Under the pieces are notes generated by a model, which was given only the letters and a program-made list of their open reading frames with translations, was not told the origin of the DNA and ran no database searches. A stretch of DNA of 32,000 nt from Puniceicoccaceae bacterium (GTDB lineage: Bacteria > Verrucomicrobiota > Verrucomicrobiia > Opitutales > Coraliomargaritaceae). A program made the translations under genes and the position numbers. Shown piece by piece: positions 3,328 to 27,421 of the stretch. Numbering within the stretch: the stretch's first letter is position 1; each line of letters begins with the position of its first letter. The stretch spans positions 50,790 to 82,789 of the forward strand of contig JAGYJE010000013.1 in assembly GCA_018402305.1 (NCBI GenBank), written 5' to 3'.

Positions 3328-5661
3328 ATGCCGAAACCTTCGCCCACCCAAACCAAGCATTCCCGACCCAACGCCTTGGAAATGTTCACAGACCGAGTCT
3401 CGGAGCAGGCGATTCTCGCCCGTCTGCTCGCGCCTTCCAGCGCTATTACGGCTCAAAACACGGATTTCCTGACGGTCTTTTATGGTGTCGGCGGTGTGGG
3501 GAAAAGCACGCTTTGCCGGCGAGCAATGGAGACTTGCGCCGAGACCCATCAAAAAGTCGTTGTCGCCCTGATTAACCTCGATACCAATCTATGGAACACA
3601 AAGTCGCCCTTCGCGCACTTGATCGGGGAATTGGTCCACTCCCTCCTCGCGAAGGGAGTCCAGACCCGCCTCGCCCAGGCGCTGCTACTGATTTACTCCC
3701 GTGTCGATGCCGCATTGCCACTTCGTGAGGAGTCCTCGGCTGTCTGGCAGGGCGCCCTCTCTGTGCTCGACCAAGCCACGCAGACTATCGGCATCCCAGG
3801 CTTCTCTCTCGTAGTGCAAGGTGCCCAATGGCTCAAAGACCGAAAAGAGCAGTCAGATACCGAAACTCGATTAAAGAGGCTCGGTCTCTGGCCAGATTGG
3901 CTGGACGGAAAAGTGAATCTAGCCGACCTCGAGAAAAAGCTCGGATTGGCGCTCTTTGAGGACCTTCGTGATTGGTCCGGTAAGGAAGGTCACCTGCGCT
4001 TCTTGATTGATGGCTTCGAACGGATTCAGGGGCACGAGCGCCACGAGGACTGCCAACTCCGGCTCCAGCAATTCATTGGCTACTTTGCCGCCGACGAGGA
4101 TGCAGTCCTTAGGTCGCGATTGCGCTTCTTCATCTTTGGCCGTGAAAAACTCCGCTGGGACGAACTCTACGAGGATCCATCGTGGAACGACTACTGGACG
4201 CAGCATTTGCTCGGTGGACTCGGCGAAGCCGATGCCCGTGATTACTTGCGCAAACACGCACAATGGCTCGAGGACCACGGGGATCCGGTTTCCGGCAAGG
4301 CGGTGATCAATCACTCAGAGCGCATCCTCGATGCCGCAGATGAACGGATTCACAACGAGCGCACAGTCTACCCATTTTACCTCGAACTCGCTGTTGAAAT
4401 GGTCCGCGACGGCGCGCGCGCGGGCCAAATCCCCGACCTCGGCCGCACTCCGACCGAACTCCGCGACCGCTTCCTCCGCTACTTGCCCGAAGCCGACGGT
4501 CACTTGCTCAAGATCCTCGCTCTCGCGGAGACCTTCGATGCGGATATGTTCGATGCCCTTGTCCGCGAACAACGCGTCACCGGCCACGTGGTCGGGGGCT
4601 TTCGCACGGCGGTGGCGGAAGGGCGCTCGTATGTGATCTGCTCCGAAGGCTGCTGCCGATTCCACCGCCTGATGGAAGATGCCCTCCAAGACCAATGGCT
4701 ATTATCACAACCGAACCGCGAGCAGGGATGCAAATTGGTTGCGTGGCTTCTTGAACATCTTGCCACTCGATTCCAAGGAAAGCAACGCAAGGATTGGACA
4801 GCGGAAGATCTGGATATCTGGAGGCGCGGAGTGGAAATCATCATTTCCCAGGGCGAGGAGCTTGACCTCATGGATCGAAAACAAACCGATGATTTGCTTT
4901 CCGGGGAGCCTTGGAAGATCAAATTCCCGGCCACTTTCGATTCACAAGAAGCATTTTCGAAGAGAATATTGGAAAGTAGAGAAAAAGCCCTCGGGGCGGA
5001 GCATCTTGATACCCTGATGAGCGTCAACAATCTCGGGAATCTCCTGAGCGACAAAGGCGACTACGACGGGGCCGAGGCGCTCTACCGCCGCGCTTTGGAG
5101 GGCAAGGAAAAAGCCCTTGGGGCCGAGCATCCCGATACGCTGAGTAGCGTCAACAATCTCGGGAGTCTCCTAGGCGACAAAGGCGACTACGACGGGGCCG
5201 AGGCGCTCTGCCGCCGCGCCCTGGAGGGCTATGAAAAAGCCCTCGGGGCAGAGCATCCTGATACGCTGACTAGCGTCAACAATCTCGGGAATCTCCTGAG
5301 CAACAAAGGCGACTACGACGGGGCCGAGGCGCTCTACCGCCGGGCCTTGGAGGGCAGAGAAAAAGCCCTAGGAGCCGAGCATCCCGAAACTATAGCTAGT
5401 GCCTATTCATTGGCTTCTATGATCAATCGTCGCAACCGCCGTCCCGAAGCTATAGCACTCCTCCGCCGCTTCGCCTCATTCTCCGCCGCCTCCCGCGACG
5501 GCGTCGCCTACAATCTCGCCTGCTACGAATGCCTCGAGGGCAATCTTGAAGAAGCCAAGCGCCTGATCTCCGAACACCTCCAACTGCATCCCGAGAAGAA
5601 AGATCAAGCACTCGCGGATGAGGATTTTGCCGCCATTCATGATTTTATCCGATCGCTGTGA
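3328..5661 (+). CDS. STAND-type P-loop NTPase with C-terminal kinesin-light-chain-type TPR repeats; no N-terminal effector domain
   Basis: Uninterrupted 777-aa ORF. It has a pre-Walker motif FTDRVSEQAILARLL, Walker A VFYGVGGVGKSTL and Walker B-like LRFLIDGFERI. About four 42-aa TPRs follow (ALGAEHPDTLxSVNNLGxLLxxKGDYDGAEALYRRALEG), then a capping helix region YNLACYECLEGNLEEAKRLISEHLQLHPEKK. Its stop TGA (5659-5661) overlaps the GTG start of the next gene. Confidence 0.85.
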   Translation: MPKPSPTQTKHSRPNALEMFTDRVSEQAILARLLAPSSAITAQNTDFLTVFYGVGGVGKSTLCRRAMETCAETHQKVVVALINLDTNLWNTKSPFAHLIGELVHSLLAKGVQTRLAQALLLIYSRVDAALPLREESSAVWQGALSVLDQATQTIGIPGFSLVVQGAQWLKDRKEQSDTETRLKRLGLWPDWLDGKVNLADLEKKLGLALFEDLRDWSGKEGHLRFLIDGFERIQGHERHEDCQLRLQQFIGYFAADEDAVLRSRLRFFIFGREKLRWDELYEDPSWNDYWTQHLLGGLGEADARDYLRKHAQWLEDHGDPVSGKAVINHSERILDAADERIHNERTVYPFYLELAVEMVRDGARAGQIPDLGRTPTELRDRFLRYLPEADGHLLKILALAETFDADMFDALVREQRVTGHVVGGFRTAVAEGRSYVICSEGCCRFHRLMEDALQDQWLLSQPNREQGCKLVAWLLEHLATRFQGKQRKDWTAEDLDIWRRGVEIIISQGEELDLMDRKQTDDLLSGEPWKIKFPATFDSQEAFSKRILESREKALGAEHLDTLMSVNNLGNLLSDKGDYDGAEALYRRALEGKEKALGAEHPDTLSSVNNLGSLLGDKGDYDGAEALCRRALEGYEKALGAEHPDTLTSVNNLGNLLSNKGDYDGAEALYRRALEGREKALGAEHPETIASAYSLASMINRRNRRPEAIALLRRFASFSAASRDGVAYNLACYECLEGNLEEAKRLISEHLQLHPEKKDQALADEDFAAIHDFIRSL
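4981..5390 (+). repeat. Tandem 126-bp coding repeats (about 3.25 copies) encoding 42-aa TPR units
   Basis: Units start at 4981, 5107, 5233 and 5359, each beginning gaaaaagccctXggggc.gagcatc. Copies are nearly identical at the nucleotide level. The fourth copy diverges after about 30 nt. Confidence 0.9.
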
Positions 5662-8600
5662 CCACGCCATCCCGCACTGTCCGCGTATTCCTGAGCAGCA
5701 CCTTTCGCGACTTCGCCGAAGAGCGGGATCTGCTGGTCCGAAAGGTCTTTCCTGAGCTTCGACGCAAGTGCCGGGAGCGCCAAGTCGAGTTGGTGGACGT
5801 CGACCTGCGCTGGGGCATTACCGAGGAGGAGGCCCAGCAAGGCAAGGTGCTCCCCATTTGCCTTGCCGAGATAGATCGTTCGCGCCCATATTTCATCGGT
5901 CTATTGGGCGAGCGCTACGGTTGGGTGCCGGAAAAAGACCTGTATGATTCGTCGCTCTTGCTAGATCAGCCATGGCTTGAAGAGCACCGGGGCGGCAAGA
6001 GCGTGACCGAACTTGAGATCCTCCATGGGGTCCTCAACAACCCTGAAATGGCAGGCCACGCATTCTTTTATTTTCGGGATCCGGCCTATTCGTCGCGAAA
6101 AGGCGGTGACTACCTGAGCGATGGGGAGGAAGAGCGGATTCGCCTTGCCGCGCTAAAGGGCCGCATCCTGCGCAGTGGATTCCCGTTGGTCGAAAACTAC
6201 CCCGGACCCGAAGCGCTGGCAGAACGGGTGCGCGATGACCTTTGGAAACTCATCGACAAGACTTTTCCGGAGAGCGAGGTGCCCGACTCCCTCGCACAGG
6301 AACGCATGCAGCACGAGGGGTTCGCCTCTTCGCGACTCGGTCTCTACATCGGCGGAGAGTGTTATCTGCGGGCGCTTGATGCCGCGATCTCCGCGGATCC
6401 TCGCAAGCCGGTCCTGGTGTGCGGCGCTTCGGGCGGCGGCAAGAGCGCGCTTCTCGCAAACTGGGCCCAAAAGTATTCCCTGGCAAATCCCGAGGCGATC
6501 GTGCTTACCCACTTCCTCGCCACAGGAGCCGATGCTGCCCATTCGGTCAACATGGTTATCCGCCTTCTGCGGGAGATTTCGCGAATGACCGGCGAGGAAC
6601 TCGTGCTTGATGGCGATCCACGTAGGGCGCTTCCGATGCTGGAGGAGTGGTTGGAAAAAGCCGGGAATTTCGCCCATGAAAAAGGCGGCGTTTTTGTCCT
6701 CCTGCTGGACGCCCTCGACAAGATGACCGTGCACCGAGACCTCGACTGGTGGCCGAAGCGCTTGCCGGAAGGAGTCGCCCTCGTAGCCTCGTGCCTTGAT
6801 GGTGGCGTGCGCGACTCCGTAATGCCGAAAATGGAATGGACCGAATTGCGCGTCTCGCCGCTCGAGCGATCGGATTGCGAGAGATTCATCCGCGAACATC
6901 TGGCGAAATACCGCAAGTCGCTCACGCCGCAGCAAACAGCCTTGGTTCTGGGGCATCCGCTTTGCGGGAATCCCCTCTTCCTGCGGACTTTGCTCGAGGA
7001 GCTTCGCATCTTCGGAGTCCATGAAGAACTCAATCTCCGGCTCAAGCACTACACCGAGAGCGTTACCATCGATGACCTCTTCGAGAAAGTGCTCGAACGA
7101 GTGGAGTCCGACAACTCGCCAGAATCGGTTCGTGCGGCCTTGGAGGTGCTCTGGGCGGCAAAAGAAAGTTTCGCCGAGGATGAACTTCTTGCCGTCTCTG
7201 GATTGCCCCCGGCGGTTTGGGCTCCTATCCACATCGCCCTTGACGAATCACTCATTGGGGCAGGACGACGACTCGCCTTCGGCCACGACTACCTGCGAAA
7301 GGCCGTCGAGGACCGCTACCTTGACACGACAGAAGACCGGCAGCGTATTCAAAAATGCATGGCGCAACTCTGTGCCAAAGCGATGGTCACAGGTCGCAAG
7401 GAAATCTCCCATTATATCCGCCGCCATGCGGTGGAGCATTTCCTGGAGGCGGAGGATTGGGATAACGCCGCAGGTGCCTTGTCGGATCTGGAATTCATCG
7501 AGGCCCGAGCCATCGCGCAGGAACTGCCCTCTATGCTCAAGGACTATGCCGGGGCCGTGAAGTTGCTTCCCGAGGGCGAAAAGCAGCGCCAAACGGAAGC
7601 GGCCCGGCAGGCGGAGTTGGACCGCTACGCCAAGGAAATGGCGGAATACGCCGCCACATGGTCGCGCATCCGCGATGGGAGCGGCGAGAATGAGCCCATT
7701 CTACCCCAACCGCCACTTCAGGTGCGACTATGGACCCGCGAGGAAATCGCGGCGGAGCGCAAACGCATGACGGAAAAGCCCAATCGTTTGGACATCGTCA
7801 AGGCGTTCCGCGTGTTCCTTGCCACCCATGCGACCCCGCTCCAGAAATATGCCACGAGCAGGGGCTTTGCTGCCCACCTCGCCAGAAACGAGACTCCAGC
7901 GGGGCCTGTGCACGACGTCGGTGAGAGACTGCTTGAGTCATTGGATGGCATTAAACTCCTTAGGCAATACCAAACCGGGGAAACATACAATCCACTTCCC
8001 GCCTGTCAGGCTGTGCTCGAGGGGCATATGGATGAGGTCAATGAACTCGTCCTGAGCGCAGATGGAAGGCGTGTCATTTCGGGGAGCAGGGATAATACCA
8101 TTCGCGTGTGGGATTTGGAGAGTGGCGAGTGCCTGAAGGTGCTTGGGGAGGCGGGACTCTGGAACGGGGTAAATCGCGTGCTGAGTGTGGACGGAAGACA
8201 TGTCGTTTCGAGCACGTTACATACCATTTGCGTTTGGGATGTGGAGAGCGGAGAATGCCTAAAAGAATTCGAGCATGTGTGGTATTACGGGCATGTGCGT
8301 CGTGCTTATTATTATGATGTCACCTTCTTCCTTCTGAGCACGGATGGAAGACGTGTCATTTCGGTGAGTAAAGGCCGCATGCAGAACGTGCGACTGTGCG
8401 TGTGGGATGTGGATAGCGGCGAGTGCCTGAAAGTGCTCGAAGGGAATACAGGCGCGGTCAAGTCCCTCGTCCTTACCGCTGATGGAAAGCGTGTCATCAC
8501 GGAAAGTTTCTTCCCCGCGCAGGGGGAGTGGAATCAGGAGAGCAAAGCTTTTCAAGAAGCGGAGCGTCCTTCTTCCTCCACGCTACACGTGTGGGATGTG

Positions 8601-11129
8601 GAGAGCGGAAAGTGCCTGAAGGTGCTCGAAGGGCATACAGGCGTGGTCAAGTCCCTAGTCATTACCGCAGATGGAAGGCGTGTCATTTCGGGGAGCTATG
8701 ACAATACCATTCGTGTTTGGGATTTGGAGGGCGGCGCTTGCCTGAAGGTGCTCGAGGGTCATACATGCGGTGTCAATACTATTGTCCTGAGAGCGGACGG
8801 AAGGCGTGTCATTTCGGGGAGCGATGACAATACCATTCGCGTGTGGGATTTGGAGAGTGGCGAGTGCCTAAAGGTATTCGAGGGGCATACGGGTGCGGTC
8901 GAATCACTCGTTCTGAGTGCGGATGGAAGGCGTGTTACTTCGGCGAGTTGCGACAATACCATTCGCGTGTGGGATGTGGATAGTGGCGAGTGTCTGAAGG
9001 AGTTAGACGTGCCGGCGGGTAAGTTTTTTTCGTCGATAACGTGTCTCGTGCTGAGCGCAGATGGAAGGCGTGTCATTTCGGGGAGCGGGGATCATACCAT
9101 TCGTGTTTGGGATTTGGAGAGTGGCGAGTGCACGAAGGTGCGGGAGAGGTATCCAGGTGCGTTCGTCCTGAGCGCGGATGGTAGGCGTGCCATTTCGATG
9201 AGGCACGGGGCTGGCCTTCGCATGTGGGATTTGCAGAGTGGCGAGTGCCTAAAGGTGCACGATGGGCATACGAGTAGGATCGAGTCCCTCGTCCTGAGTG
9301 CGGATGGCAAACGTGCCATTTCGATGATGTATGGGGATGCCCTTCGCATGTGGGATGTGGAAAGTGGTGAGTGCCTGAAGGTGTTTGAGGGGCATACAGT
9401 CGAGCTAACGAGTGGACCTCAGTATGCGAGCAATTGCCTTGTCCAAAGCGCGGATGGCAGGCTTGTCATTTCAGGGGACAGGGACGATACCATTCGCGTG
9501 TGGGATGTGGAGAACGGCGAGTGCCTGAAGGTGCTCCAGGGGCACTCGGATGGGGTTAAGTCCATCGTCCAGAGCGCGGATGGAAGGCGTGTCATTTGGG
9601 GGAGTAATGGGAATACCATTCGCGGGTGGGATGTAGAGAGCGGAGAGCATCTAGATTTTGACGGCTGGCATGCTGCTACAGTAAAGTCCCTCGCCCTCAG
9701 TGCGGATGGAGTGCGTGTTGTATCTGGTAGCAAAGACAAGACCATTCGCGTGTGGGATGTGGAGAGTGGGTCGTGCGTGGGGGTGTTCGAGGGGCATGCG
9801 GATGCGGTCGAGTCCCTCGTCATGAGCGCGGATGGAAGGCTTGTTGTATCGGGAAGCGGGGACCACACCCTGCGCGTGTGGGATTTAAGTAGGATGTGGG
9901 AGAGCAACGAGTGCGTGAAGGTGCTCGAAGGGCATGCAGGCGCGGTCAAGTCCCTCGTCCTTACCGCGGATGAAAAGTGTGTCATTTCGGGGAGTGAGGA
10001 CCATTCCATTCGTGTTTGGGATTTGGAGAGCGGAGAGTGCCTCAAGGTGCTTGAGGGGCATACGGGCGGAGTCGATCCTATGGTCCTGACCGCGGACGGA
10101 AAGCGTGTCATTTCGGGAGGTGAGGACCACACGCTGCGCGTGTGGGATTTGGAGAGTGGCGAGTGCCTGAAGATACTCGAGGGGCATACAAGTGGGGTCG
10201 AATCCCTCGTTCTGACCGCGGATGGAACGCGTGTCACTTCGGCGAGCTGGGACAATACCATTCGCGTGTGGGATGTGGAGAGTGGCGAGTGCCTGGAGGT
10301 GCTCGAAAGACATATGGATGGGGTCACATCCCTCGTTCTGACCGCAGACGGAAAGCGTATGGTATCGGGGAGTTGGAACCATTCCCTACGCTTCTGGGAT
10401 GTGGAGAGCGGCGAGTGCCTGAAGGTAATCGAGGGGCGTACGGATGGAATCAGGTCCCTCGTTCTGAGTGCGGACGGAAGGCGTATCGTTTCGGAGAGTC
10501 GGAACCACACCTTGCGCGTGTGGGATGTCGAGAATGGCGAGTGCCTGAAGGTGCTCGAGGGGTATATGGATGAGGTCAAATTCCTCGTCATAAGCGCGAA
10601 TGGCAAGACTGTTATATCGGGGCATAGAGATAAAATTCGCGTGTGGGATGTGGAGAGTGGAGTGTGCCTGAAGTCGCTAGAGGGGATGCGGCAAAAATGG
10701 ATCACGGATGAACCAACCGATCTCTTCGGGCTCTCCTCTGACACAGTCTATTCGTTCGTCGTGAGCGCGGATGGCAGAAGTGTTATATCGGGGTATAGCG
10801 ATAAGATTCGCGTGTGGAATGTAGAGAGTGGAGAGTGCCTGAAGGTGCTAGAGGGGCATATGGCTGAGGTCGAGTCCCTCGTCCTGAGTGCCGATGGAAG
10901 GCGCGTCATTTCGGGGAGTGACGACAGCACCTTGCGTGTGTGGGATCTCGATTCCGGGGAATGCTGTGGTGTATTTTTTGTGCGAGGTCATTCCTCCATA
11001 GCATTTCACTCGGGATCCGGGAGGTTGATTGTCGGTTTTTCGGATGGCCGCGTTGAGTTTTACAATATTCTGAGGCTTACACTTGACTCCTTCATTCCGC
11101 AGTCCGCGGATGAGGTCATACCTAATTAG
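5658..11129 (+). CDS. NLR-like protein: DUF4062-like N-terminal module + NACHT-type NTPase + helical linker + about 22 WD40 repeats (NWD1-like architecture)
   Basis: Uninterrupted 1823-aa ORF. The GTG start at 5658 is supported by the paralogue at 19030, which begins ATG with the identical MTTPSRTVRVF. The N-terminal module reads VRVFLSSTFRDFAEERDLLV..VDLRWGI..FIGLLGERYGW..GGKSVTELEILHGVL..FFYFRD. Walker A is VLVCGASGGGKSALLANW (G..S at 6423-6446) and Walker B is VFVLLLDALDKM. Conserved motifs LVASCL and GNPLFLRTLLEELRIFG follow. From about aa 787 there are repeated GHxxxVxSLVLSADGRRVISGSxDNTIRVWDLESGECLKVLE units. Confidence 0.9.
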   Translation: MTTPSRTVRVFLSSTFRDFAEERDLLVRKVFPELRRKCRERQVELVDVDLRWGITEEEAQQGKVLPICLAEIDRSRPYFIGLLGERYGWVPEKDLYDSSLLLDQPWLEEHRGGKSVTELEILHGVLNNPEMAGHAFFYFRDPAYSSRKGGDYLSDGEEERIRLAALKGRILRSGFPLVENYPGPEALAERVRDDLWKLIDKTFPESEVPDSLAQERMQHEGFASSRLGLYIGGECYLRALDAAISADPRKPVLVCGASGGGKSALLANWAQKYSLANPEAIVLTHFLATGADAAHSVNMVIRLLREISRMTGEELVLDGDPRRALPMLEEWLEKAGNFAHEKGGVFVLLLDALDKMTVHRDLDWWPKRLPEGVALVASCLDGGVRDSVMPKMEWTELRVSPLERSDCERFIREHLAKYRKSLTPQQTALVLGHPLCGNPLFLRTLLEELRIFGVHEELNLRLKHYTESVTIDDLFEKVLERVESDNSPESVRAALEVLWAAKESFAEDELLAVSGLPPAVWAPIHIALDESLIGAGRRLAFGHDYLRKAVEDRYLDTTEDRQRIQKCMAQLCAKAMVTGRKEISHYIRRHAVEHFLEAEDWDNAAGALSDLEFIEARAIAQELPSMLKDYAGAVKLLPEGEKQRQTEAARQAELDRYAKEMAEYAATWSRIRDGSGENEPILPQPPLQVRLWTREEIAAERKRMTEKPNRLDIVKAFRVFLATHATPLQKYATSRGFAAHLARNETPAGPVHDVGERLLESLDGIKLLRQYQTGETYNPLPACQAVLEGHMDEVNELVLSADGRRVISGSRDNTIRVWDLESGECLKVLGEAGLWNGVNRVLSVDGRHVVSSTLHTICVWDVESGECLKEFEHVWYYGHVRRAYYYDVTFFLLSTDGRRVISVSKGRMQNVRLCVWDVDSGECLKVLEGNTGAVKSLVLTADGKRVITESFFPAQGEWNQESKAFQEAERPSSSTLHVWDVESGKCLKVLEGHTGVVKSLVITADGRRVISGSYDNTIRVWDLEGGACLKVLEGHTCGVNTIVLRADGRRVISGSDDNTIRVWDLESGECLKVFEGHTGAVESLVLSADGRRVTSASCDNTIRVWDVDSGECLKELDVPAGKFFSSITCLVLSADGRRVISGSGDHTIRVWDLESGECTKVRERYPGAFVLSADGRRAISMRHGAGLRMWDLQSGECLKVHDGHTSRIESLVLSADGKRAISMMYGDALRMWDVESGECLKVFEGHTVELTSGPQYASNCLVQSADGRLVISGDRDDTIRVWDVENGECLKVLQGHSDGVKSIVQSADGRRVIWGSNGNTIRGWDVESGEHLDFDGWHAATVKSLALSADGVRVVSGSKDKTIRVWDVESGSCVGVFEGHADAVESLVMSADGRLVVSGSGDHTLRVWDLSRMWESNECVKVLEGHAGAVKSLVLTADEKCVISGSEDHSIRVWDLESGECLKVLEGHTGGVDPMVLTADGKRVISGGEDHTLRVWDLESGECLKILEGHTSGVESLVLTADGTRVTSASWDNTIRVWDVESGECLEVLERHMDGVTSLVLTADGKRMVSGSWNHSLRFWDVESGECLKVIEGRTDGIRSLVLSADGRRIVSESRNHTLRVWDVENGECLKVLEGYMDEVKFLVISANGKTVISGHRDKIRVWDVESGVCLKSLEGMRQKWITDEPTDLFGLSSDTVYSFVVSADGRSVISGYSDKIRVWNVESGECLKVLEGHMAEVESLVLSADGRRVISGSDDSTLRVWDLDSGECCGVFFVRGHSSIAFHSGSGRLIVGFSDGRVEFYNILRLTLDSFIPQSADEVIPN
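8016..11080 (+). repeat. Array of about 22 WD40-encoding units (mostly 126 bp) with near-identical scaffold nucleotides and localised variable codons
   Basis: Strings such as gatggaaggcgtgtcatttcggggagc and accattcgcgtgtgggat(g/t)tggagagtggcgagtgcctgaaggtgctcgagggg recur throughout. I counted 22 xVWDxxSGEC motifs in the translation. Some units carry insertions, for example FFPAQGEWNQESKAFQEAERPSSS and GMRQKWITDEPTDLFGLSSDTVYSF. Confidence 0.9.
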
Positions 11130-11170: not shown

Positions 11171-11527
11171 ATGAAATTCAAAAAAATGTTCTTTTGCTGT
11201 GTTCCCCTTTTTCTGGGAATTGCGGATCTCGCCTCTGCGGCCGAGGCGATGACGGTCAGGATCAAGAGTGGTCGCATTCAGGAGTATGTGAACGGTTCGT
11301 TGAAGCGGAGCTACGGATCTAATCTCATCGATGCATCGACGGATGGCATCACAGTGGTGGGTGTCACCAAGGATGGTAAGGTCAAGGAGTATAAGAACGG
11401 CTCCCAGCGGCGTACGTTTGGCTCGAATGTGGTAAGGGTGCGGATCAGCGGTGGCACGGTATTTGCCGAACTCAAAAATGGCAAGACGGCCGAATACGTG
11501 AACGGCAGCCTTCGGCGCACTTTTTAA
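11171..11527 (+). CDS. Small secreted protein with three beta-hairpin-type repeats
   Basis: 118-aa ORF. The N-terminus MKFKKMFFCCVPLFLGIADLASAAEA looks like a signal peptide. Three repeats follow: GRIQEYVNGSLKRSYGSN, GKVKEYKNGSQRRTFGSN and GKTAEYVNGSLRRTF. It starts 41 nt after the WD40 gene stop. Confidence 0.6.
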   Translation: MKFKKMFFCCVPLFLGIADLASAAEAMTVRIKSGRIQEYVNGSLKRSYGSNLIDASTDGITVVGVTKDGKVKEYKNGSQRRTFGSNVVRVRISGGTVFAELKNGKTAEYVNGSLRRTF

Positions 11528-13237: not shown

Positions 13238-13609
13238 ATGGAAATCAGAAAAGGAACGGGTTCAAGCGTGCTCTTAAACATCAGAGGGGATGAAATCAGA
13301 GAAGGAACGGGATCAAAAACTCTGCTTAATATCAGAGGAGACGTAATCAGGGAAGGGACTGGCTCGTCCGTAATCATGAATCTCCGTGGAAATGATATTC
13401 GAAAAGAAACCGGTTCATCAACTTTATACAACATCAGAGGAGACGAACTTCGAAAGGGAACTGGAAGCACTGTTCTTTTCAATATTCAAGACGAAGATAT
13501 AAGAAAAGGAACTGGATCGACCGTATTATACAATACAAAAGGTGGTCGTCTTGGAGGAATTCAATTAGCAGCTGTTCTATATGCGCTAAGAGAGATTCAA
13601 GCTCATTGA
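13238..13609 (+). CDS. Small cytoplasmic repeat protein, six 17-aa beta-hairpin-type repeats (IRGDEIRKGTGSSVLxN)
   Basis: 123-aa ORF in an AT-rich islet. It contains six tandem units: EIRKGTGSSVLLN, IRGDEIREGTGSKTLLN, IRGDVIREGTGSSVIMN, LRGNDIRKETGSSTLYN, IRGDELRKGTGSTVLFN and IQDEDIRKGTGSTVLYN. There is no signal peptide. The periodic amino-acid conservation argues for real coding. Confidence 0.6.
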   Translation: MEIRKGTGSSVLLNIRGDEIREGTGSKTLLNIRGDVIREGTGSSVIMNLRGNDIRKETGSSTLYNIRGDELRKGTGSTVLFNIQDEDIRKGTGSTVLYNTKGGRLGGIQLAAVLYALREIQAH

Positions 13610-16931: not shown

Positions 16932-19007
16932 ATGCCAAAGATCACCATTCGTTTTACGCAAGACTCCGTTCCACTTGAGGAGGAAAGAGATTTCTACTTA
17001 GACCTCTTTCGATCGCTAGGGCTGAAGTCTAGGATGCTTTTTGATGAGCAGGAGTTTGAGATAACTGCTCAGACAAAAGTGACCTTGTTTGGTATGGAGA
17101 CATCGGTTCCACAAGGTCTCCAGACGGAGAGATCTTGGGTCTGCCGCCTAATCGAAAAGGAGGGTTTCCTCCTTTTCTCTGTGGGGGGCTGGTTCTGGGC
17201 CGCTTCGTTGAAAAATTCAAATCACTTGAAAAAGTCATCTCACCCCGAGGAGATGATAGCAAAACTTCCTGTTGATTTACGGGTTCTGTCTTTAAAACAG
17301 TCAAACGAAGTGAATGACCTCCGGTCGCTTTCTAGTCTGAGCAGTCTGACCAGCTTAAATCTAGATAATTGCTGGAGAGTGACCGATATCTCTGCGCTTT
17401 CTGGTTTGAGCAATCTGACCAGCATAAATCTTTCTTGCTGCAGACTGACCGATATCTCTGCGCTTTCTGGTCTGACCGGACTGACCAAATTGGATCTATC
17501 AGCGAACTATCTTATTGAAGATTTTTCCCCACTAGAGGGACTAATTGCTCTAGAAAATTTAAATTTATCTGCAACTGGAGATATTCTGTCACAACAAGAT
17601 TTATTTGTTATTTCCAAACTCACCTCTCTTACCAAACTCAATTTGAGAAGGGGTGGCAGTCGTTATGAGATAAAAGACTTGTCGTCATTATCATGCCTTA
17701 CGAATTTGACTAACTTGGATTTATCCGATTTTGCAGCTATTACAGATTTATCACCACTGTCGTGTCTTAAAGCACTTACCGTATTAAACTTAACAGATTG
17801 TATATCAATAAAAGATATATCACCTTTATCTGATTTGACAGCGCTGCGTGATCTAAAGCTTTTTGGTTGCAACTCAATCACCAAACTAGACCCAATAGGC
17901 AAAATACCCTCGTTAGAGGAATTGAAATTTACCAGCAGACGGATCAAGAGTGTTGAATCGCTGAGGAATATCCCAGCATTGCGTGAAGTCACAGAATTCA
18001 ATCCTCCAGAGGTAGCAGAGCTTCTAGCCCATACAGCCTACTTACGCTCAGACCGAGATTGCATTAAGTGGTATTCTAAGGATTGGTTGAAGGAGGCTAA
18101 AGATTGGAGAGAAGACACAAGCTCACTACAAGACCGTTTCGCCGCCACACTGGGCGAGGCCTTCAGCCTGCTGGGTGAGGATTCGATTGCAGAGGACTAC
18201 GAGGCATTCTTGGATGGTCGCCCTGATTTTTCATCCGCCCCATGGAAGGCTTGGTTTGGGGGAACGCTCAAGGAAAGTGGTTTTGTCCTCTACCGCCAGC
18301 GTGTGGAGCGTGTGGCGGTGAGCCAAATGCTCCCCAGCGCGATCGGTGGCGCCTGCTCGACACTGCCTTATGAAGATCAGCCTGAATGGTCGCGCGAATG
18401 GCTGATGTCACTGGAGATCGCCTGCTTGAGCGATGCCAAAAAACTTCTCTCCGTTGCTCCAGAGATCTGCCTCGCTCACGCCAGGTTGGATTTAAGCGAA
18501 GCCCTGCGCCGATGGTTGGAAGCGTTCACCGATCCCTCCGACCCAGGTGCTCTGGATCCTGTTCATGCCGCTCTTGCGGGGTTCCAGCTTGCCTTGAACC
18601 ACCTCGATGCCGCCGAGTCACATATTTTTGCTATAGAGTCGCCCAGTCTAAAGGACCCAATGCTAGCCAATCTCATTTCCTCCTATCCAGCAACCGATTC
18701 CGATCGCGCCTCTGCGCAACTGCTTCTCATCGCAGCTCCTGCCACCCGTCGCGAATTGGCCAAAACTCTGGTCACGATACCGGAGTATTCGATGTCAGAA
18801 GTTGCCATGCAGCGCTTGGTCGTTGCCATGGATGATTCTCCCGAAGCGCTTGGCGAACTCATCGCCCTCCTTCCCCCATCCGCCGCCCCATCCCAGCTCA
18901 TCCAGCAAATCTCCGCCTCCTTACAACTCGACCGCCAATCCACCCTTCGTAAAATCAGTGATGAGCTGCACCAGCAGGCAGATCGCCTGCTGATCCTAAA
19001 AAAATGA
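16932..19007 (+). CDS. Leucine-rich-repeat protein with alpha-helical C-terminal half
   Basis: 691-aa ORF starting 8 nt after the previous stop. About 10 LRRs of 22-26 aa lie between about aa 115 and 340. Examples are LSSLSSLTSLNLDNCWRVTDISALSGLSNLTSINLSCCRLTDISALSGLTGLTKLDLSAN and LSCLTNLTNLDLSDFAAITDLSPLSCLKALTVLNLTDCISIKDISPLSDLTALRDLKLFGCNSI. The C-terminal 340 aa appear helical. Confidence 0.85.
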   Translation: MPKITIRFTQDSVPLEEERDFYLDLFRSLGLKSRMLFDEQEFEITAQTKVTLFGMETSVPQGLQTERSWVCRLIEKEGFLLFSVGGWFWAASLKNSNHLKKSSHPEEMIAKLPVDLRVLSLKQSNEVNDLRSLSSLSSLTSLNLDNCWRVTDISALSGLSNLTSINLSCCRLTDISALSGLTGLTKLDLSANYLIEDFSPLEGLIALENLNLSATGDILSQQDLFVISKLTSLTKLNLRRGGSRYEIKDLSSLSCLTNLTNLDLSDFAAITDLSPLSCLKALTVLNLTDCISIKDISPLSDLTALRDLKLFGCNSITKLDPIGKIPSLEELKFTSRRIKSVESLRNIPALREVTEFNPPEVAELLAHTAYLRSDRDCIKWYSKDWLKEAKDWREDTSSLQDRFAATLGEAFSLLGEDSIAEDYEAFLDGRPDFSSAPWKAWFGGTLKESGFVLYRQRVERVAVSQMLPSAIGGACSTLPYEDQPEWSREWLMSLEIACLSDAKKLLSVAPEICLAHARLDLSEALRRWLEAFTDPSDPGALDPVHAALAGFQLALNHLDAAESHIFAIESPSLKDPMLANLISSYPATDSDRASAQLLLIAAPATRRELAKTLVTIPEYSMSEVAMQRLVVAMDDSPEALGELIALLPPSAAPSQLIQQISASLQLDRQSTLRKISDELHQQADRLLILKK

Positions 19008-19029: not shown

Positions 19030-21657
19030 ATGACCACACCATCCCGCACTGTCCGCGTCTTCCTCAGTTCCACCTTCCGCGATTTCGCCGAAGAGCGGGA
19101 TTTGCTAGTGAGGAAGGTTTTTCCTGAATTGCGTCGAAAGTGCCGGGAGCGGCAAGTCGAGTTAGTGGACGTGGACCTGCGCTGGGGTATCACAGAGGAA
19201 GAGGCCCAGCAGGGCAAGGTGCTACCGATCTGTCTCGCAGAGATCGACCGCTCACGGCCTTATTTCATTGGCTTTCTCGGGGAACGCTATGGCTGGATTC
19301 CTGATCAATCAGAGTATGACCTCTCACTCCTGTTAGAGCAATCGTGGCTGGAGGAGCACAGGGGAGGCACAAGTGTCACGGAGTTGGAAATCCTTCACGG
19401 CGTGCTCAACAATCCCCAGATGGCCGGGCGGGCCTTGTTCTATTTCCGCGATCCAGCCTGGTCGGAAGGAAAGGGCGAGGCATATGCGAGCGAGAGCGAT
19501 GACGAAAAAGCAAGAGTCTCCTCGCTGAAAGACCGGATCCGAAAAAGCGGGTTTCCCGTGGTTGAGGACTACCCCGACCCCGAGGCGTTAGCAGAGCGCG
19601 TGCGGGAAGACCTTTGGCAATGGATCGATGAGACTTTTCCGGAGGATTCCGTGCCTGACTCGCTGACACGCGAGAGGTTAAAGCACGAGGCCTACAGCGC
19701 ACCCCGGCAACGTCTCTACATCGGTGGCGAAGAGTATTTTAAGGCCTTGGATAAGGCGATGAGTGCGCAGAATTTTCTCCCTGTGCTGGTTACCGGTCAG
19801 TCCGGCGGTGGCAAGAGCGCCTTGCTTGCCAACTGGGTTCCTCGCTGGAGCAATCTACACCCGAAAACCTCGGTGATCCTGCATCACCTCGGCGCCGGAG
19901 CTGATGCGGCGGACCCGGTGCGGATCGTGGTGCGTCTGATACAGGAAATCGCCTGCCTGACCGGAGATGAATTCAAGCCGGAGAGCGATCCGGAGAAACA
20001 ATTGGAGGAATTGCCCCAATGGTTGGCGCTGGGCAGTGCTTGGGCAGAGCGGGAAGGGCGTGAACTGCTGCTCGTGCTGGATGGGTTGGACAAGGTATCA
20101 GACCTGAAAGACCTGCGGTGGTTCCCGTCATTCCTGCCGGCAAAGGTGAAGCTGGTGGTGTCCTGTCTTGAGGGGACGATTCTGCAGGCTGCGAAAGGTA
20201 GATTGGAATGGAGGGAAATCGAAGTTAAGCCCTTCACACCCGCCGATCAGTTGCGCTTTATTGGTGAATACCTGCTACGCTTCCGCAAATCGCTCACGCC
20301 AACACAAACCAGTATCCTACAAGGACATCCCCTGAGTGGTAATCCGATGTTTCTACTGACCGTGCTGGAGGAGTTGCGGGTGTTCGGCATGCATGGGCAG
20401 TTGGACCAACGCCTGCAGAAACTGCTATCTCCGCCACTAAGCAAGGGCAAAAGCGAGGCGCCGACGGTGGACGACGTGTTTGAGCATGTGCTGGCCCGGA
20501 TTGAGGAAGACCTCGGCAAGCAAGTGGTTAAGGCTGCCGTGGAAGCGATCTGGGCGAGTCGTGGTGGATTGTATCGGGAGGAGTTGTTAGGGGTGGCACA
20601 GTTGACGCCAGCCGCTTGGGCGTCGCTGCAGATCGTGCTGGATGAAGGACTCTACGAAAGCGGCGGGCGGATCAATTTCGGTCACGACTACCTGCGCAAG
20701 GCGGTGGAAGACCGCTACGACCTCACGGGCGAACGGAAAATAAATCTGCACCGACGCTTGGCCGAATATTTCGCCACCCTGCCGGTGGATGCGCGAGTGG
20801 CCGAGGAGCTCCCGTGGCAGTGGGAACAGGCAAGTAATCGAAAGAAACTCAAAGCGTGTCTGACTGACCTCGAGCTGTTTGCGGCAATGATGAATCGCAA
20901 CGAATATGAACTGTTGGGCTATTGGCTGCGTCTTGGATGCGACATTAGCACAGAGTATGAGACAGCTTGGCTTCAGTGGGAGCTTGAAGGAGAAATAATG
21001 GCATCAATCGGGGCAGGTCTGGCAAATTTTCTTCATACAGCTGGCCGATACACGACGTTTGCGCCGTGGATTCAGGAAGAAGTGCTGCAGTTGAGGCGTG
21101 AGAAACTTGGCATTGAGCATCCGGATACGCTGAGCGCGATGGGTAATCTCGCCCTTTACTACTCGGATGCGGGTCGACTGGAGGAGGCGCTGTGGATTCA
21201 GGAAGAAGTGCTGCAGCTGATACGTGAGAAACTTGGCATCGAGCATCCGGATACGCTGAGCGCGATGGGTAATCTCGCCAGATCCTACGCGCATGCCGGT
21301 CGGCTGGAGGAGGCGCTGGGGCTTTGGGAAGAAGTGCTGCAGTTGAGGCGTGAGAAACTTGGCTTCGAGCATCCGGATACGCTGCGCGCGATGAACATCC
21401 TCGCCGGCTGTCTGAACGCCCTCGATCGCCGATCTGAATCTATTACATTGCTTCGCAAAGCATCGGCGGAGTCTTCTCTCGTTTACGACGGCGTTGCCTA
21501 CAATCTCGCCTGCTACGAATGCCTCGAGGGCAATCACGAGGAAGCTAGGCGCCTAATCTCTGAGCACCTCAAGCTGCATCCAGAAAAGAAAGAGCAAGCC
21601 CTCGCGGATGAGGATTTTGCGGCGATTCACGATTGGATTTCTGAACTTGAGGTATAG
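19030..21657 (+). CDS. NLR-like protein: DUF4062-like N-terminal module + NACHT-type NTPase + KLC-type TPR repeats
   Basis: 875-aa ORF. The first 81 aa are identical to the 5658 gene product. Walker A is VLVTGQSGGGKSALLANW and Walker B is LLLVLDGLDKV. The motifs VKLVVSCLEG and GNPMFLLTVLEELRVFG follow. There are three 42-aa TPRs (WIQEEVLQLRREKLGIEHPDTLSAMGNLAxxYxxAGRLEEAL). The C-terminal cap YNLACYECLEGNHEEARRLISEHLKLHPEKK is nearly identical to that of the 3328 gene. Confidence 0.9.
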   Translation: MTTPSRTVRVFLSSTFRDFAEERDLLVRKVFPELRRKCRERQVELVDVDLRWGITEEEAQQGKVLPICLAEIDRSRPYFIGFLGERYGWIPDQSEYDLSLLLEQSWLEEHRGGTSVTELEILHGVLNNPQMAGRALFYFRDPAWSEGKGEAYASESDDEKARVSSLKDRIRKSGFPVVEDYPDPEALAERVREDLWQWIDETFPEDSVPDSLTRERLKHEAYSAPRQRLYIGGEEYFKALDKAMSAQNFLPVLVTGQSGGGKSALLANWVPRWSNLHPKTSVILHHLGAGADAADPVRIVVRLIQEIACLTGDEFKPESDPEKQLEELPQWLALGSAWAEREGRELLLVLDGLDKVSDLKDLRWFPSFLPAKVKLVVSCLEGTILQAAKGRLEWREIEVKPFTPADQLRFIGEYLLRFRKSLTPTQTSILQGHPLSGNPMFLLTVLEELRVFGMHGQLDQRLQKLLSPPLSKGKSEAPTVDDVFEHVLARIEEDLGKQVVKAAVEAIWASRGGLYREELLGVAQLTPAAWASLQIVLDEGLYESGGRINFGHDYLRKAVEDRYDLTGERKINLHRRLAEYFATLPVDARVAEELPWQWEQASNRKKLKACLTDLELFAAMMNRNEYELLGYWLRLGCDISTEYETAWLQWELEGEIMASIGAGLANFLHTAGRYTTFAPWIQEEVLQLRREKLGIEHPDTLSAMGNLALYYSDAGRLEEALWIQEEVLQLIREKLGIEHPDTLSAMGNLARSYAHAGRLEEALGLWEEVLQLRREKLGFEHPDTLRAMNILAGCLNALDRRSESITLLRKASAESSLVYDGVAYNLACYECLEGNHEEARRLISEHLKLHPEKKEQALADEDFAAIHDWISELEV
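21067..21444 (+). repeat. Tandem 126-bp coding repeats (3 copies) encoding TPR units
   Basis: Units start at 21067, 21193 and 21319. The string caggaagaagtgctgcag(t/c)tga..cgtgagaaacttggcat.gagcatccggatacgctgagcgcgatgggtaatctcgcc is almost identical in copies 1 and 2. Confidence 0.9.
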
Positions 21658-21676
21658 ATTGAACAGGCCTGCCACC

Positions 21677-26805: not shown

Positions 26806-26821
26806 GGAATCAATTAAGAAA

Positions 26822-27421
26822 ATGCTCTGGAGTAACAACAAACTAATCGAGTTAATAGAAACTGACGATTTTGAAAAATTTGAGAAGGAATTCTCCAAGA
26901 AAAAAGACAAGACGGAGAGAACTCGCTATCTGAAATTTCCAGATTGGACTTATCTGCATATTGCCTGCAATAATAAGGCACTGGGAGTTGTTAAATCCAT
27001 ATTTAAGATATTTTCAGATTTCCCGGTGGATATCCAAGACGAACGAGGTATGACGCCTCTCCTAAGAAGTATCGCCAAGGAGGATTTCGAAACGGTCAAA
27101 TACTTGATCTCCAGAGGAGCTAGCCTGGATGTAACGGTCAATAACGATGTCAAAGTCATTCATTACGCGATACAGAATGGTAATCCGGATTTGCGGACTT
27201 TCTGTATCAATGAATACGGCCCACACAATCTGGACAATCTGGCTTATCTATCCATAGCTCAAATTTTGAATGTGCAGGAAATAATGCGGCTGAAGACTTT
27301 AGGGGTTGAGTTTGATCCTGCCAAATTAAAAGAGATTATCATACGAGTGATTTTATCTGATGATAACGAAGAGCACATCCTTGAAAACCTTCATTATTTT
27401 CTCGATCAAAAATTAAAATGA
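26822..27421 (+). CDS. Ankyrin-repeat protein
   Basis: 199-aa ORF starting 16 nt after the previous stop, in an AT-rich islet. ANK-like units are YLHIACNNKALGVVKSIF, ERGMTPLLRSIAKEDFETVKYLISRGASLDV and VIHYAIQNGNPDL. Confidence 0.7.
   Translation: MLWSNNKLIELIETDDFEKFEKEFSKKKDKTERTRYLKFPDWTYLHIACNNKALGVVKSIFKIFSDFPVDIQDERGMTPLLRSIAKEDFETVKYLISRGASLDVTVNNDVKVIHYAIQNGNPDLRTFCINEYGPHNLDNLAYLSIAQILNVQEIMRLKTLGVEFDPAKLKEIIIRVILSDDNEEHILENLHYFLDQKLK

Follow-up and report, generated by a model that had tools for sequence, protein, structure and literature searches.

A bacterial DUF4062-NACHT-like-WD40 gene with a moderately repetitive 23-blade array: a probable NLR-like sensor

The question raised by this locus is whether a bacterium diversifies a WD40 sensor by shuffling its repeats, as fungi do. 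Rapid, fungal-like diversification has been proposed for the WD40 and TPR repeats of bacterial NLR-like proteins where these are internally conserved (bioRxiv 10.1101/2020.01.06.895854), and no bacterial case was found to have been worked out in the literature searched. The first-pass annotation of the window, the whole 32,000-nucleotide stretch of DNA analysed here, had described a hypervariable array with exactly the pattern of the fungal HET-E, HET-D and HET-R genes. The kind of system encoded is already known, and the description as fungal-like and hypervariable is borne out only partly.

Domain organisation of the gene

The gene is an intact open reading frame, the GTG start of which overlaps the stop codon of the upstream gene by 4 nt. 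The encoded protein starts with a DUF4062/NIR domain, followed by a NACHT-like STAND NTPase and then, after a helical linker, by 23 WD40 blades; neither a TROVE nor a vWA domain was found.

3328..5661, + strand: upstream, translationally coupled STAND (AAA_16) gene with TPR_10/12 repeats (Pfam, TRF)
5658..11129, + strand: whole gene, 1823 aa (open reading frame list; Pfam searches with the full protein and with its N-terminal part)
5673..6203, + strand: N-terminal DUF4062 or 'NIR' domain, a predicted TIR-like NADase effector, aa 6-182 (Pfam PF13271, phmmer)
6009..6017, + strand: T-E118-L-E120 motif with the putative catalytic glutamate (alignment to the TEP1 chain and 13 homologues)
6408..6908, + strand: NACHT-like P-loop NTPase, aa 251-417 (weak Pfam match, motif search)
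6909..8006, + strand: helical or winged-helix linker, aa 418-783 (homologue alignment, Pfam)

In a search with the N-terminal part of the protein the effector domain matches PF13271 with E=2.3e-13 and a score of 50.6 bits, well over the 24.7 required, and phmmer against the PDB aligns aa 6-182 with the TIR-like domain of human TEP1 (11gz_A, E=1.7e-33). Thr117, Glu118, Leu119 and Glu120 are unchanged across the 13 homologues. Glu120 pairs with Glu115 of the TEP1 chain in the alignment to 11gz_A, which, from the offset in numbering, would be the published catalytic residue E1008 (bioRxiv 10.64898/2026.05.01.722283). Experiments have shown DUF4062 to be an NADase, both in systems directed against phages and in TEP1 itself (bioRxiv 10.64898/2026.05.01.722283, 10.64898/2026.09.04.749371); for the domain encoded here the activity is predicted from sequence, the demonstrations being on its relatives only.

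The NTPase has a Walker A sequence, GASGGGKS (aa 256-263), and a Walker B-like sequence, VLLLDALDK (aa 347-355), in which the D-A-L-D-K stretch has the last acidic residue of the D[GAS]hDE signature replaced. The Pfam NACHT match (E=0.001, 19.4 bits) lies under the cut-off of 26.7 and those to AAA_22 and AAA_16 are also weak. The NACHT score of paralogue 19030 is 26.7. The linker, which is kept in the homologue alignment, contains a weak match to APAF1_C (Pfam E=0.014). NCBIfam gave only sub-threshold matches, and an exact-sequence look-up of the 1823-aa protein returned no record. An alignment-based scan of genome contigs found relatives, a scan with the single protein none. A C-terminal zinc-ribbon extension of the type seen in P0005, P0002 and P0088, looked for here in frameshifted form, is absent downstream of the gene in every frame, and scans for promoters and terminators did no better than chance.

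The WD40 array and its variable codons

Cutting at the W-D-x boundary divides aa 784-1806 into 23 units, canonically of 126 bp or 42 aa.

8007..11075, + strand: WD40 array, units u1-u22 and a degenerate closing blade, u23 (segmentation, alignment, TRF, Pfam)
8601..8978, + strand: u5-u7, copy one of a three-unit segmental duplication (nucleotide identity)
9888..10277, + strand: u15-u17, copy two, offset by 10 units (nucleotide identity)

The tandem period given by TRF is likewise 126 bp, and Pfam WD40 (PF00400) matches 15 stretches with E=2.6e-152. The array noted at first pass is therefore real, though it comprises 23 blades at 8007-11075 rather than about 22 at 8016-11080. Twenty-two units end in W-D/N-x and the complete D-H-S/T-W tetrad is present in 11 of the 23. 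Seven units (u3, u4, u8, u9, u11, u15 and u21) depart from 42 aa by at least three residues, and u20, at 41 aa, is one residue short. The 23 blades must fold into several beta-propellers. The earlier partition of 22 blades into three seven-bladed propellers is not settled by the AF2 models, which reach a pLDDT of 47 on the single sequence and of 61, with a pTM of 0.37, on a 10-sequence alignment. A fold search gave generic tandem-propeller matches only, with low global TM and with Apaf-1 among them; 2ymu_A is the closest solved structure by sequence (E=9.5e-102) and also the top fold match.

The scaffold DNA had been called near-identical from blade to blade, a description that the alignment does not uphold. 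Unit-to-unit nucleotide identity averages 69.5% (range 55.6-89.7%) with a pooled dS of about 0.75, amino-acid identity averages 0.57-0.58, and the longest exact repeat inside the array is 41 nt (at 8094 and 8829). This 41-nt match was considered as a gene-conversion tract and set aside because a rough estimate does not place it clearly above expectation. Of two strings quoted as shared between neighbouring units, the 27-mer occurs exactly at three places (eight with up to three mismatches); the 54-mer has no exact occurrence and is a composite, two sites matching it with three mismatches. Each unit is unique, and the alignment shows their order to be aperiodic. Within the segmental duplication the nucleotide identity is 86% for u5/u15, 80% for u6/u16 and 90% for u7/u17; for 8600-8899 against 9899-10198 it is 84%. 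On the scale of Hu et al the array has a repetitiveness level of 0.54, in the moderately repetitive class (0.4-0.7), and does not reach the highly repetitive class, in which at least six of eight contiguous repeats are all at 0.7 or more pairwise (PMC5587647).

Since no exact repeat is longer than 41 nt, the risk of assembly collapse, to which the region had been called prone, is low. It is very improbable that the array is an artefact, having been collapsed, expanded or joined as a chimera in this contig, or in the metagenome contig of the relative described below. Units that differ by 10-44% are resolved by reads of at least 100 nt, the 5.4-kb reading frame is intact, there is no periodicity or duplication of identical units, and arrays with differing numbers of blades are seen in many assemblies that are independent of one another. 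One point in favour of an artefact is a run of Ns within the WD40 array of a related genome record, L007 (UBA956).

The variation between blades is, as had been proposed, focused on a few codons. Columns 13, 14, 15, 17, 33 and 35 of the unit have amino-acid entropies of 2.36-3.44 bits while the other 36 columns do not exceed 1.82 bits. All of the variants listed at first pass are present in the translation, both those in the first patch (TGVVKS, TCGVNT, TGAVES, SDGVKS, ADAVES, TGGVDP, MDGVTS and TDGIRS) and those in the second (YDN, DDN, CDN, GDH, EDH, WDN and WNH). In HET-E and HET-D the positively selected codons 7, 9, 25 and 27 flank the constrained codons 8 and 26 (PMC1805685); the equivalent columns here, 15, 17, 33 and 35, flank Val16 and Asp34. 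The AF2 models have four strands per unit, at columns 5-10, 16-21, 27-32 and 36-41. The variable columns would then lie within the d-a loop or where strand a begins, and within the b-c turn. These are top-face elements of WD40 propellers (PMC1805685), so that the earlier assignment of the variable sites to the top face is consistent with the models. The same columns are variable across WD40 proteins generally.

By a crude counting method that ignores recombination, omega at the six columns jointly comes to 1.0-1.3, the scaffold having 0.3. Column 33 shows a nominal excess (omega about 2.05, p=4e-4) and columns 13 and 15 are likewise nominal, again by crude counting and at pre-selected sites. 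Because the six sites were picked for their variability omega is biased upwards, and relaxed constraint alone would yield a value of about 1, so the diversifying selection postulated for surface sites does not emerge from a joint value of only 1.0-1.3. In close pairs of units from P0007, on the other hand, omega at these columns is 2.6. An NG86 estimate of dN/dS for the hypervariable sites over the whole array, 0.53, was rejected as unreliable, its denominator being the few synonymous sites of those codons themselves, and was replaced by the comparison with the pooled dS and with close pairs.

These values bear on another explanation, in which stability alone shapes an ordinary WD40 scaffold with consensus-like blades. 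The repeats would look alike because a very stable propeller framework is maintained by purifying selection, and the variable columns would be the loop positions that are unconstrained in any WD40 blade, without adaptive diversification. An omega close to 1 at sites chosen for variability would fit this, as would the observation that repetitive WD40 proteins in general are diverse at their hotspot positions and are more stable (Hu et al, PMC5587647). Amino-acid identity between units is also much the same within the gene (0.57) as between genes (0.55-0.57), and in the orthologue L005 it is kept at 0.55 even though synonymous sites are nearly saturated (0.35). As the identity is family-wide and persists in L005, much of the conservation of the scaffold can be put down to purifying selection. 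The excess of nonsynonymous change at column 33 and the close pairs of P0007 point the other way, as do the silent sites and the comparison with a close relative described in the next section, and taken together we consider an ordinary scaffold to be an unlikely account of the array as a whole.

Turnover of the array

If the blades were alike only through selection on the protein, silent sites would not be shared within one gene more than between genes. Identity between units at 4-fold sites is 0.63 within the gene and 0.28-0.39 against the units of orthologues, with 0.26 for a control in which the same amino acid was compared at different columns. The bootstrap confidence interval of the difference within versus between genes excludes 0, and none of 1000 label permutations reaches the observed value. 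In the N-terminal region, comparison with the nearest orthologues gives a 4-fold identity of 0.42-0.46. The units are thus more alike within the gene than to those of orthologues at silent sites, as is expected under concerted evolution, and the repeat shuffling suggested for the array at first pass has a counterpart in this DNA-level signal of duplication or homogenisation. Such sharing cannot stem from selection at the protein level. The number of blades also varies among relatives when these are compared, as had been recommended, with counts of 7, 14, about 15, 16 and 23.

A closer comparison is provided by L084, a relative that matches the window over 5678-7987 with 92.2% nucleotide identity (megablast) and a 4-fold identity of 0.853.

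7988..8010, + strand: homology breakpoint with L084, at the junction of the linker and the first blade (the megablast match ends at 7987)

At this point the sliding-window identity falls from 0.90-0.98 to 0.47-0.58. The array of L084 has 7 blades against 23 here, and 4-fold identity between the two arrays is 0.354, in a comparison that consists of one 5-kb metagenome contig without a common 3' flank; L084 may be a paralogue of recent origin, or its contig a chimera. The break lies at a junction motif that is conserved among the paralogues and at which chimeric joins could form, which is the second point in favour of an artefact. The L084 array does not appear to be a deletion derivative of the 23-blade array, as the first blades are only 57% identical, the 4-fold identity is low and every L084 unit finds its best match in u22, at 65-75%. 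Gene conversion between paralogues was also discarded as the source of the 92% similarity, the N-terminal modules of the paralogues being 36-59% identical in amino acids.

Since the L084 array is unrelated at synonymous sites, the difference points to replacement of a cassette rather than reshuffling, and the presence of a completely different 7-blade array in so close a relative suggests that the sensor turns over quickly. Such a loss of silent similarity, with 7 blades against 23, beside a 92%-identical N-terminal module is not what an ordinary scaffold would lead one to expect. The synonymous divergence among the units of the array (4-fold identity 0.63) predates the split from L084 (0.853), so the 23-blade array was not built recently. 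Taken as a whole, the sequence comparisons support turnover at the DNA level, with the array as the fast-evolving part of the gene.

Probable role and relation to known systems

The gene belongs to an island in which four DUF4062-STAND paralogues are arranged in tandem, together with the upstream STAND-TPR gene. Their C-termini are TPR, WD40, LRR-adjacent or unassigned; the window contains no second WD40 gene. The upstream gene carries three TPR units with 87% identical DNA. In L005, too, its TPR-encoding 3' end is followed directly by a DUF4062-NACHT-WD40 gene, while the N-terminal or NOD part of the upstream gene has no match there. No phage or mobile-element genes were seen adjoining the island.

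On balance, the array probably serves as the ligand-sensing module at the C-terminus of an NLR-like (STAND) protein of immune type, in which blades are duplicated and whole arrays exchanged. Bacterial TEP1-like DUF4062-NACHT-WD40 proteins have already been noted (bioRxiv 10.64898/2026.06.25.731849). If it works as Apaf-1, the Avs proteins and DUF4062 defence systems do, its propellers would hold the NTPase in an auto-inhibited state until a non-self protein, probably from a phage, bound to their top faces and released it. The protein would then oligomerise and the clustered NADase domains become active, depleting NAD+ and leading to abortive infection. The mode of evolution is seen in the sequences themselves: purifying selection keeps a structurally constrained scaffold of 36 codons, the six top-face codons of each blade change at a rate that is close to neutral or a little higher, blades are gained through tandem and segmental duplication or homogenisation, and whole arrays appear to be exchanged at the junction of linker and WD40 domain.

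A different role is conceivable, that of a housekeeping or regulatory STAND ATPase, as is debated for NWD1 and TEP1, with the propellers as a platform for the assembly of several partners. With PADLOC v2 no Avs or NLR model matches any gene of the island, the sole matches being one to 'HEAT-ARM_XIII', driven by the WD40 repeats, and a weak one to DndF; the family is very large (more than 4400 matches) and often labelled just 'nephrocystin-3'-like; and among the neighbours are genes for a TrkA_N-RyR membrane protein and for an ankyrin protein, which are not typical defence genes. Against these stand the bacterial DUF4062 domains tested so far, all of them abortive-infection NADases, and the conservation of the catalytic-type glutamate. 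Rapid replacement of the sensor and tandem paralogues with swapped sensor types are, moreover, typical of conflict systems, and a housekeeping role is in our view distinctly unlikely.

An extension of the immune-type reading, possible but doubtful, is that the locus holds a bacterial 'NLR repertoire', in which nearly identical NADase-NACHT modules are re-armed with differing WD40 cassettes whose blades are amplified and whose top-face codons are diversified. The cassettes would be swapped through recombination at the conserved junction of linker and first blade, as the 7 and 23 blades of two lineages with 92% identity would suggest. Were this so, the locus, with its four DUF4062-STAND paralogues and its STAND-TPR gene bearing TPR, WD40, LRR-associated and unassigned sensors, would be the prokaryotic equivalent of the diversification of HNWD genes or of plant R-gene clusters, yielding new specificities of phage recognition. 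The gene offers a concrete example, with a DUF4062/NIR domain, an NADase effector type shown in 2026 to operate in anti-phage defence and in human TEP1, a silent-site signature of turnover and near-identical signalling modules bearing different sensors. It lends itself to the study of what is sensed by TEP1/NWD1-like proteins of bacteria, and of whether specificity is set by blade number or by the six top-face codons.

The protein is a bacterial counterpart of fungal HNWD and animal TEP1/NWD1, with an array that is moderately repetitive and not one of high internal conservation. With HNWD (HET-E, HET-D and HET-R of Podospora anserina) it shares a STAND NTPase followed by tandem 42-aa WD40 units, variability at matching codons, relatedness of DNA within the array and differences in repeat number between relatives. 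The fungal repeats of high internal conservation are, however, 80-100% identical (PMC12222747), compared with 57% at the amino-acid level and 70% at the nucleotide level here (90% of nucleotides for the best pair), and the pattern cannot be called exactly fungal. HNWD genes also show dN/dS strongly above 1, where omega is about 1 here, and exchange between paralogous loci; they reshuffle their repeats, whereas the difference from the nearest relative here resembles replacement of a whole array, and their effector is HET rather than DUF4062/NIR. The prokaryotic repetitive WD40 proteins of Hu et al (2017), such as the 14-blade protein of Nostoc punctiforme (2YMU), likewise have several propellers of consensus-like blades, while the present protein has 23 blades, is fused to DUF4062-NACHT and is moderately repetitive.

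Human TEP1, NWD1 and NWD2 have the same order of domains, DUF4062-NACHT-helical-WD40, of which NPHP3 is the TPR version, and paralogues in the window carry NPHP3-type TPRs. The present protein differs from the human ones in being bacterial (Verrucomicrobiota-like), in having neither TROVE nor vWA and in having blades that are far more alike. Bacterial antiviral STAND proteins, both Avs (for example PsAvs2, the effector of which is DUF4062/NIR) and bNACHT, are built from the same three parts, an effector, a STAND NTPase and a repeat sensor at the C-terminus; the DUF4062 effector of Avs depletes NAD+ on sensing phage proteins, and beta-propellers are among the sensor types of bNACHT. In contrast to Avs the sensor here is WD40 rather than TPR, no PADLOC model for these systems matches and the role in defence is predicted. 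Apaf-1, too, combines a STAND NTPase with tandem WD40 propellers, of 7 and 8 blades, and is auto-inhibited until its ligand binds, but it has an NB-ARC NTPase, a CARD effector and 15 diverged blades in place of the NACHT-like NTPase and DUF4062 domain encoded here.

Domain architecture of the WD40 protein

The WD40 array is encoded by a gene within a tandem island of STAND/NLR-like genes (window 3328-24985), and relatives of this gene lie in comparable clusters. It is translationally coupled to the STAND-TPR gene upstream, with an overlap of 4 nt.

Genes of the island
3328-5661: AAA_16 and TPR STAND gene, upstream of the main gene
5658-11129, + strand: DUF4062-NACHT-WD40 gene bearing the array, an intact single ORF of 1823 aa
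14461-16923: DUF4062-NPHP3_N/hel STAND paralogue, followed by the LRR protein
16932-19007: LRR protein, 691 aa
19030-21657: DUF4062-NACHT-TPR paralogue
21608-24985: DUF4062-NACHT-helical paralogue, C-terminal ~500 aa without an assigned family

Residues 9-110 match DUF4062 of Pfam (50.6 bits; cut-off 24.7), and residues 6-182 align with 11gz_A, the sequence of the crystallised TIR-like domain of human TEP1 (E=1.7e-33). In this alignment Glu120 is opposite a TEP1 glutamate that, judged by the numbering offset, would be the published catalytic Glu1008; the stretch Thr117-Glu118-Leu119-Glu120 is unchanged across 13 homologues. DUF4062 is a TIR-like NADase in anti-phage systems and TEP1 (bioRxiv 10.64898/2026.05.01.722283, 10.64898/2026.09.04.749371, 10.64898/2026.06.25.731849). 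The anti-phage systems with this NADase include Swarozyc, PsAvs2, Vulcan, Vesta and Evangelion, and the DUF4062-NACHT-helical-repeat layout is common to NWD1, NWD2, TEP1 and NPHP3 (2026 preprints). The NTPase carries a Walker A motif, GASGGGKS, and a Walker B-like motif, VLLLDALDK. As the Pfam NACHT match is below threshold and the D[GAS]hDE signature is present only in part, we term it NACHT-like. In both sequence and fold the WD40 region best matches the Nostoc 'highly repetitive propeller' 2YMU, followed by designed consensus propellers, PkwA, WDR5 and tandem-propeller proteins including Apaf-1. No PADLOC model matched the gene.

Units and variable codons of the array

The WD40 array is a real feature, matching Pfam WD40 with E=2.6e-152. 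Tandem Repeats Finder (TRF) detects a 126-bp period at 8588-10685, as several rows that overlap and have 71-77% matches. The translation, cut wherever W-D-x marks a unit boundary, falls into 22 units (u1-u22) and a degenerate closing blade (u23) over residues 784-1806 (nt 8007-11075). Fourteen of the 22 units are exactly 42 aa long, seven (u3, u4, u8, u9, u11, u15 and u21) depart from this by at least three residues and u20 has 41; u1 is without the first five columns, a column being a codon position in the 42-codon unit. The D-H-S/T-W tetrad is complete in 11 of the 23 units. By analogy, the 23 blades could form propellers of 7+8+8, which would agree both with the precedent of Apaf-1 and with relatives that have 15-16 blades.

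The first-pass annotation had described the scaffold DNA as near-identical, which the measured identities show to be overstated: over the 42 core codons units share on average 69.5% of nucleotides (range 55.6-89.7%), the longest exact repeat is 41 nt, and neighbouring pairs are no closer than distant ones (0.71 versus ~0.69). The peptides it quoted are all in the translation and its 27-mer is present in three exact copies, or eight allowing up to three mismatches, but its 54-mer has no exact occurrence, only two sites with three mismatches. At the amino-acid level identity between units averages 0.57-0.58, and the internal identity of 0.54, as defined by Hu et al, places the array in the 'moderately repetitive' rather than the 'highly repetitive' class, for which the threshold is 0.7 or more (PMC5587647). 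Units u5-u7 and u15-u17 form a three-unit segmental duplication (86, 80 and 90% identical; 84% over 300 nt).

GC skew is strongly positive (+0.31) only in the WD40 array (window 8001-11000), presumably because the consensus unit uses G-rich codons (GGN, GAG, GTG, TGG). Long antisense ORFs run through the array, at 9419-10744 (-, 441 aa) and 9885-10382 (-, 165 aa); their translations are repetitive, so they look like by-products of a stop-free repeated complement and not genes.

As had been proposed, variation is focused on a few codons: amino-acid entropy across the aligned units is 2.36-3.44 bits at columns 13, 14, 15, 17, 33 and 35 and at most 1.82 bits elsewhere. In both AF2 models strand d of canonical units spans columns 5-10, strand a 16-21, strand b 27-32 and strand c 36-41. 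This places the variable columns in two elements, the d-a loop with the beginning of strand a, and the b-c turn. As to position, the suggested likeness to fungal HET-E/D proteins is exact: columns 15, 17, 33 and 35 are HET-E/D codons 7, 9, 25 and 27 (offset 8). Those codons are under positive selection, lie on the propeller top face in the d-a loop/start of strand a and the b-c turn, and flank the constrained codons 8 and 26 (Paoletti et al, PMC1805685), paralleled here by Val16 and Asp34. The columns are also 'hotspot' positions that vary in WD40 blades generally (PMC5587647), so that their variability by itself is no sign of a special regime.

The codon-level analysis that the annotation had called for supports focused variation but leaves positive selection unproven. 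Pooled over unit pairs (Nei-Gojobori), dS is ~0.75 and omega (dN/dS) is ~0.3 at the 36 scaffold codons and 1.0-1.3 at the six variable codons, themselves pre-chosen as variable; this holds for all pairs as well as for the closest ones alone. Parsimony counts over a UPGMA tree that ignore recombination give omega of ~2.05 at column 33 (p=4e-4), nominal values of ~1.5-1.7 at columns 13 and 15, and ~1 at columns 14, 17 and 35. Since the sites were chosen as variable and recombination was ignored, these values are compatible with relaxed constraint and do not establish diversifying selection. In P0007, a more homogeneous homologue, omega at the six sites is 2.6 for close unit pairs.

The precedents of Apaf-1, Avs proteins and DUF4062 systems suggest that the propellers may keep the NTPase inactive until a ligand binds their top faces, to which each blade in turn would contribute its columns 13-17 and 33-35. 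Binding would free the protein to oligomerise, and the clustered predicted NADase domains would then deplete NAD+.

Silent sites and turnover of the array

For the N-terminal 781 aa there are more than 4400 homologues, the majority with TPR_10/12 arrays ('nephrocystin-3'-like) and some with WD40. Bacterial TEP1-like DUF4062-NACHT-WD40 proteins are already known (bioRxiv 10.64898/2026.06.25.731849), and no bacterial case analysed at a comparable level was found in the searched literature; what is added here is silent-site evidence and a 92%-identical relative bearing a different 7-blade sensor.

Units of the gene agree at 60-63% of 4-fold degenerate third positions in the same column, against 26-27% for the same amino acid in different columns, a control for codon usage. 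Between these units and those of orthologues the agreement is 0.39 (P0005), 0.33 (L005), 0.28 (P0007) and 0.28 (P0006), although amino-acid identity is about equal within and between genes (0.57 versus 0.45-0.57). Bootstrap confidence intervals for the within-minus-between difference exclude zero, and none of 1000 label permutations reached it. Outside the repeats, in the N-terminal regions of the nearest orthologues, the agreement is 0.42-0.46. The blades are thus related by duplication or homogenisation after the split from the compared orthologues. Internal 4-fold identity elsewhere is 0.785 in P0007, 0.54 in P0005, 0.49 in P0006 and 0.35 in L005, whose blades retain 0.55 amino-acid identity although their silent sites are nearly saturated, indicating that much scaffold conservation reflects purifying selection on a consensus-like blade.

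Together with this within-gene sharing, blade number bears out the suggested instability of the array: there are 7 blades in P0007, P0088 and L084, 14 in P0095 and P0001, ~15 in L005, 16 in P0005 and 23 here. Among genome records, freshwater Verrucomicrobiota MAGs come closest (Akkermansiaceae/Verrucomicrobiaceae labels; 70-78% identity). In L005, a TPR-STAND gene also lies directly 5' of the DUF4062-NACHT-WD40 gene. Its contig is colinear in DNA with window 4977-8134 (72%), a stretch that includes the upstream gene's TPR-encoding 3' end and stops once blade one is passed. In the upstream gene of L005, the N-terminal/NOD part has no counterpart in the window, so synteny holds only from the 3' end of that gene onward.

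The metagenome contig L084 is far closer. Over its nt 8-2317 it shares 92.2% of nucleotides and 92.6% of amino acids with window 5678-7987 (4-fold identity 0.853 over 755 codons); identity drops to 47-58% at the first blade. The L084 array comprises 6+1 blades, of which three are 89-91% identical to one another. Compared with the window blades, those of L084 show only 61% nucleotide and 0.354 4-fold identity (first blade versus u1, 57%; closing blade versus u23, 75%); no 3' flank is shared. Judged by sequence, neither array is derived from the other since the split. Paralogous N-terminal modules within the window are only 36-59% identical, which makes L084 an orthologue-level relative. For this one short contig, the simplest reading is that the whole sensor, with its 3' flank, was swapped by recombination at the linker/WD40 junction; less probably, the contrast stems from a recent paralogue or a chimeric contig join.

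An 80-aa fragment of helical linker in another record, L085 (Ga0114958_10008005, 4296-5498), is 93% identical to residues 548-627 and sits in an ORF running on into unrelated sequence, suggesting a pseudogene of this gene family or a relic of its recombination. In L007 (DBCO01000014.1, MAG UBA956) a run of Ns at ~10690-10850 interrupts the array of a related WD40 gene, so such arrays broke short-read assembly in some relatives. In P0005, P0002 and P0088 the closing blade is followed by an additional Cys-rich segment (ARP.CCGQ...CPSC...NPFF), missing from L005, P0001, P0007, P0095 and the window gene, which ends with 11076-11129; no frameshifted remnant of it was found 3' of the window gene.

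Neighbouring repeats and the end of the island

Two neighbouring STAND genes carry TPR_10 arrays that share the 126-bp period. Their units are closer to one another than those of the WD40 array (4980-5387, 3.2 copies, 87% matches; 21061-21393, 2.6 copies, 89%) and resemble the highly conserved 42-residue TPRs reported in bacterial NLR-like proteins. Small repeat ORFs lie 3' of the main gene at 11171-11527 and 13238-13609, in a stretch of lower GC (0.46-0.50). The downstream repeat proteins are one of 118 aa with a signal-peptide-like start and 'K.G...EYVNGSL.R' repeats, and one of 123 aa with 17-aa 'IRGDEIREGTGS..LLN' units (51-bp TRF period). The island ends (25081-27421) with a membrane protein that combines TrkA_N (NAD-binding Rossmann) and RyR domains, and with a small ankyrin protein next to it, downstream; a TrkA_N-RyR homologue (25% identity, E=1e-38) lies directly 3' of the WD40 gene in the Akkermansiaceae MAG UBA956 (L007 12210-13892). 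Beyond the island, 28645-30555 (-) encodes a 636-aa protein, its N-terminal 400 aa unassigned, with a C-terminal FGE-sulfatase (formylglycine-generating enzyme-like) domain, a type that is counted as an 'antigen-receptor-type' sensor in bacterial NACHT proteins.
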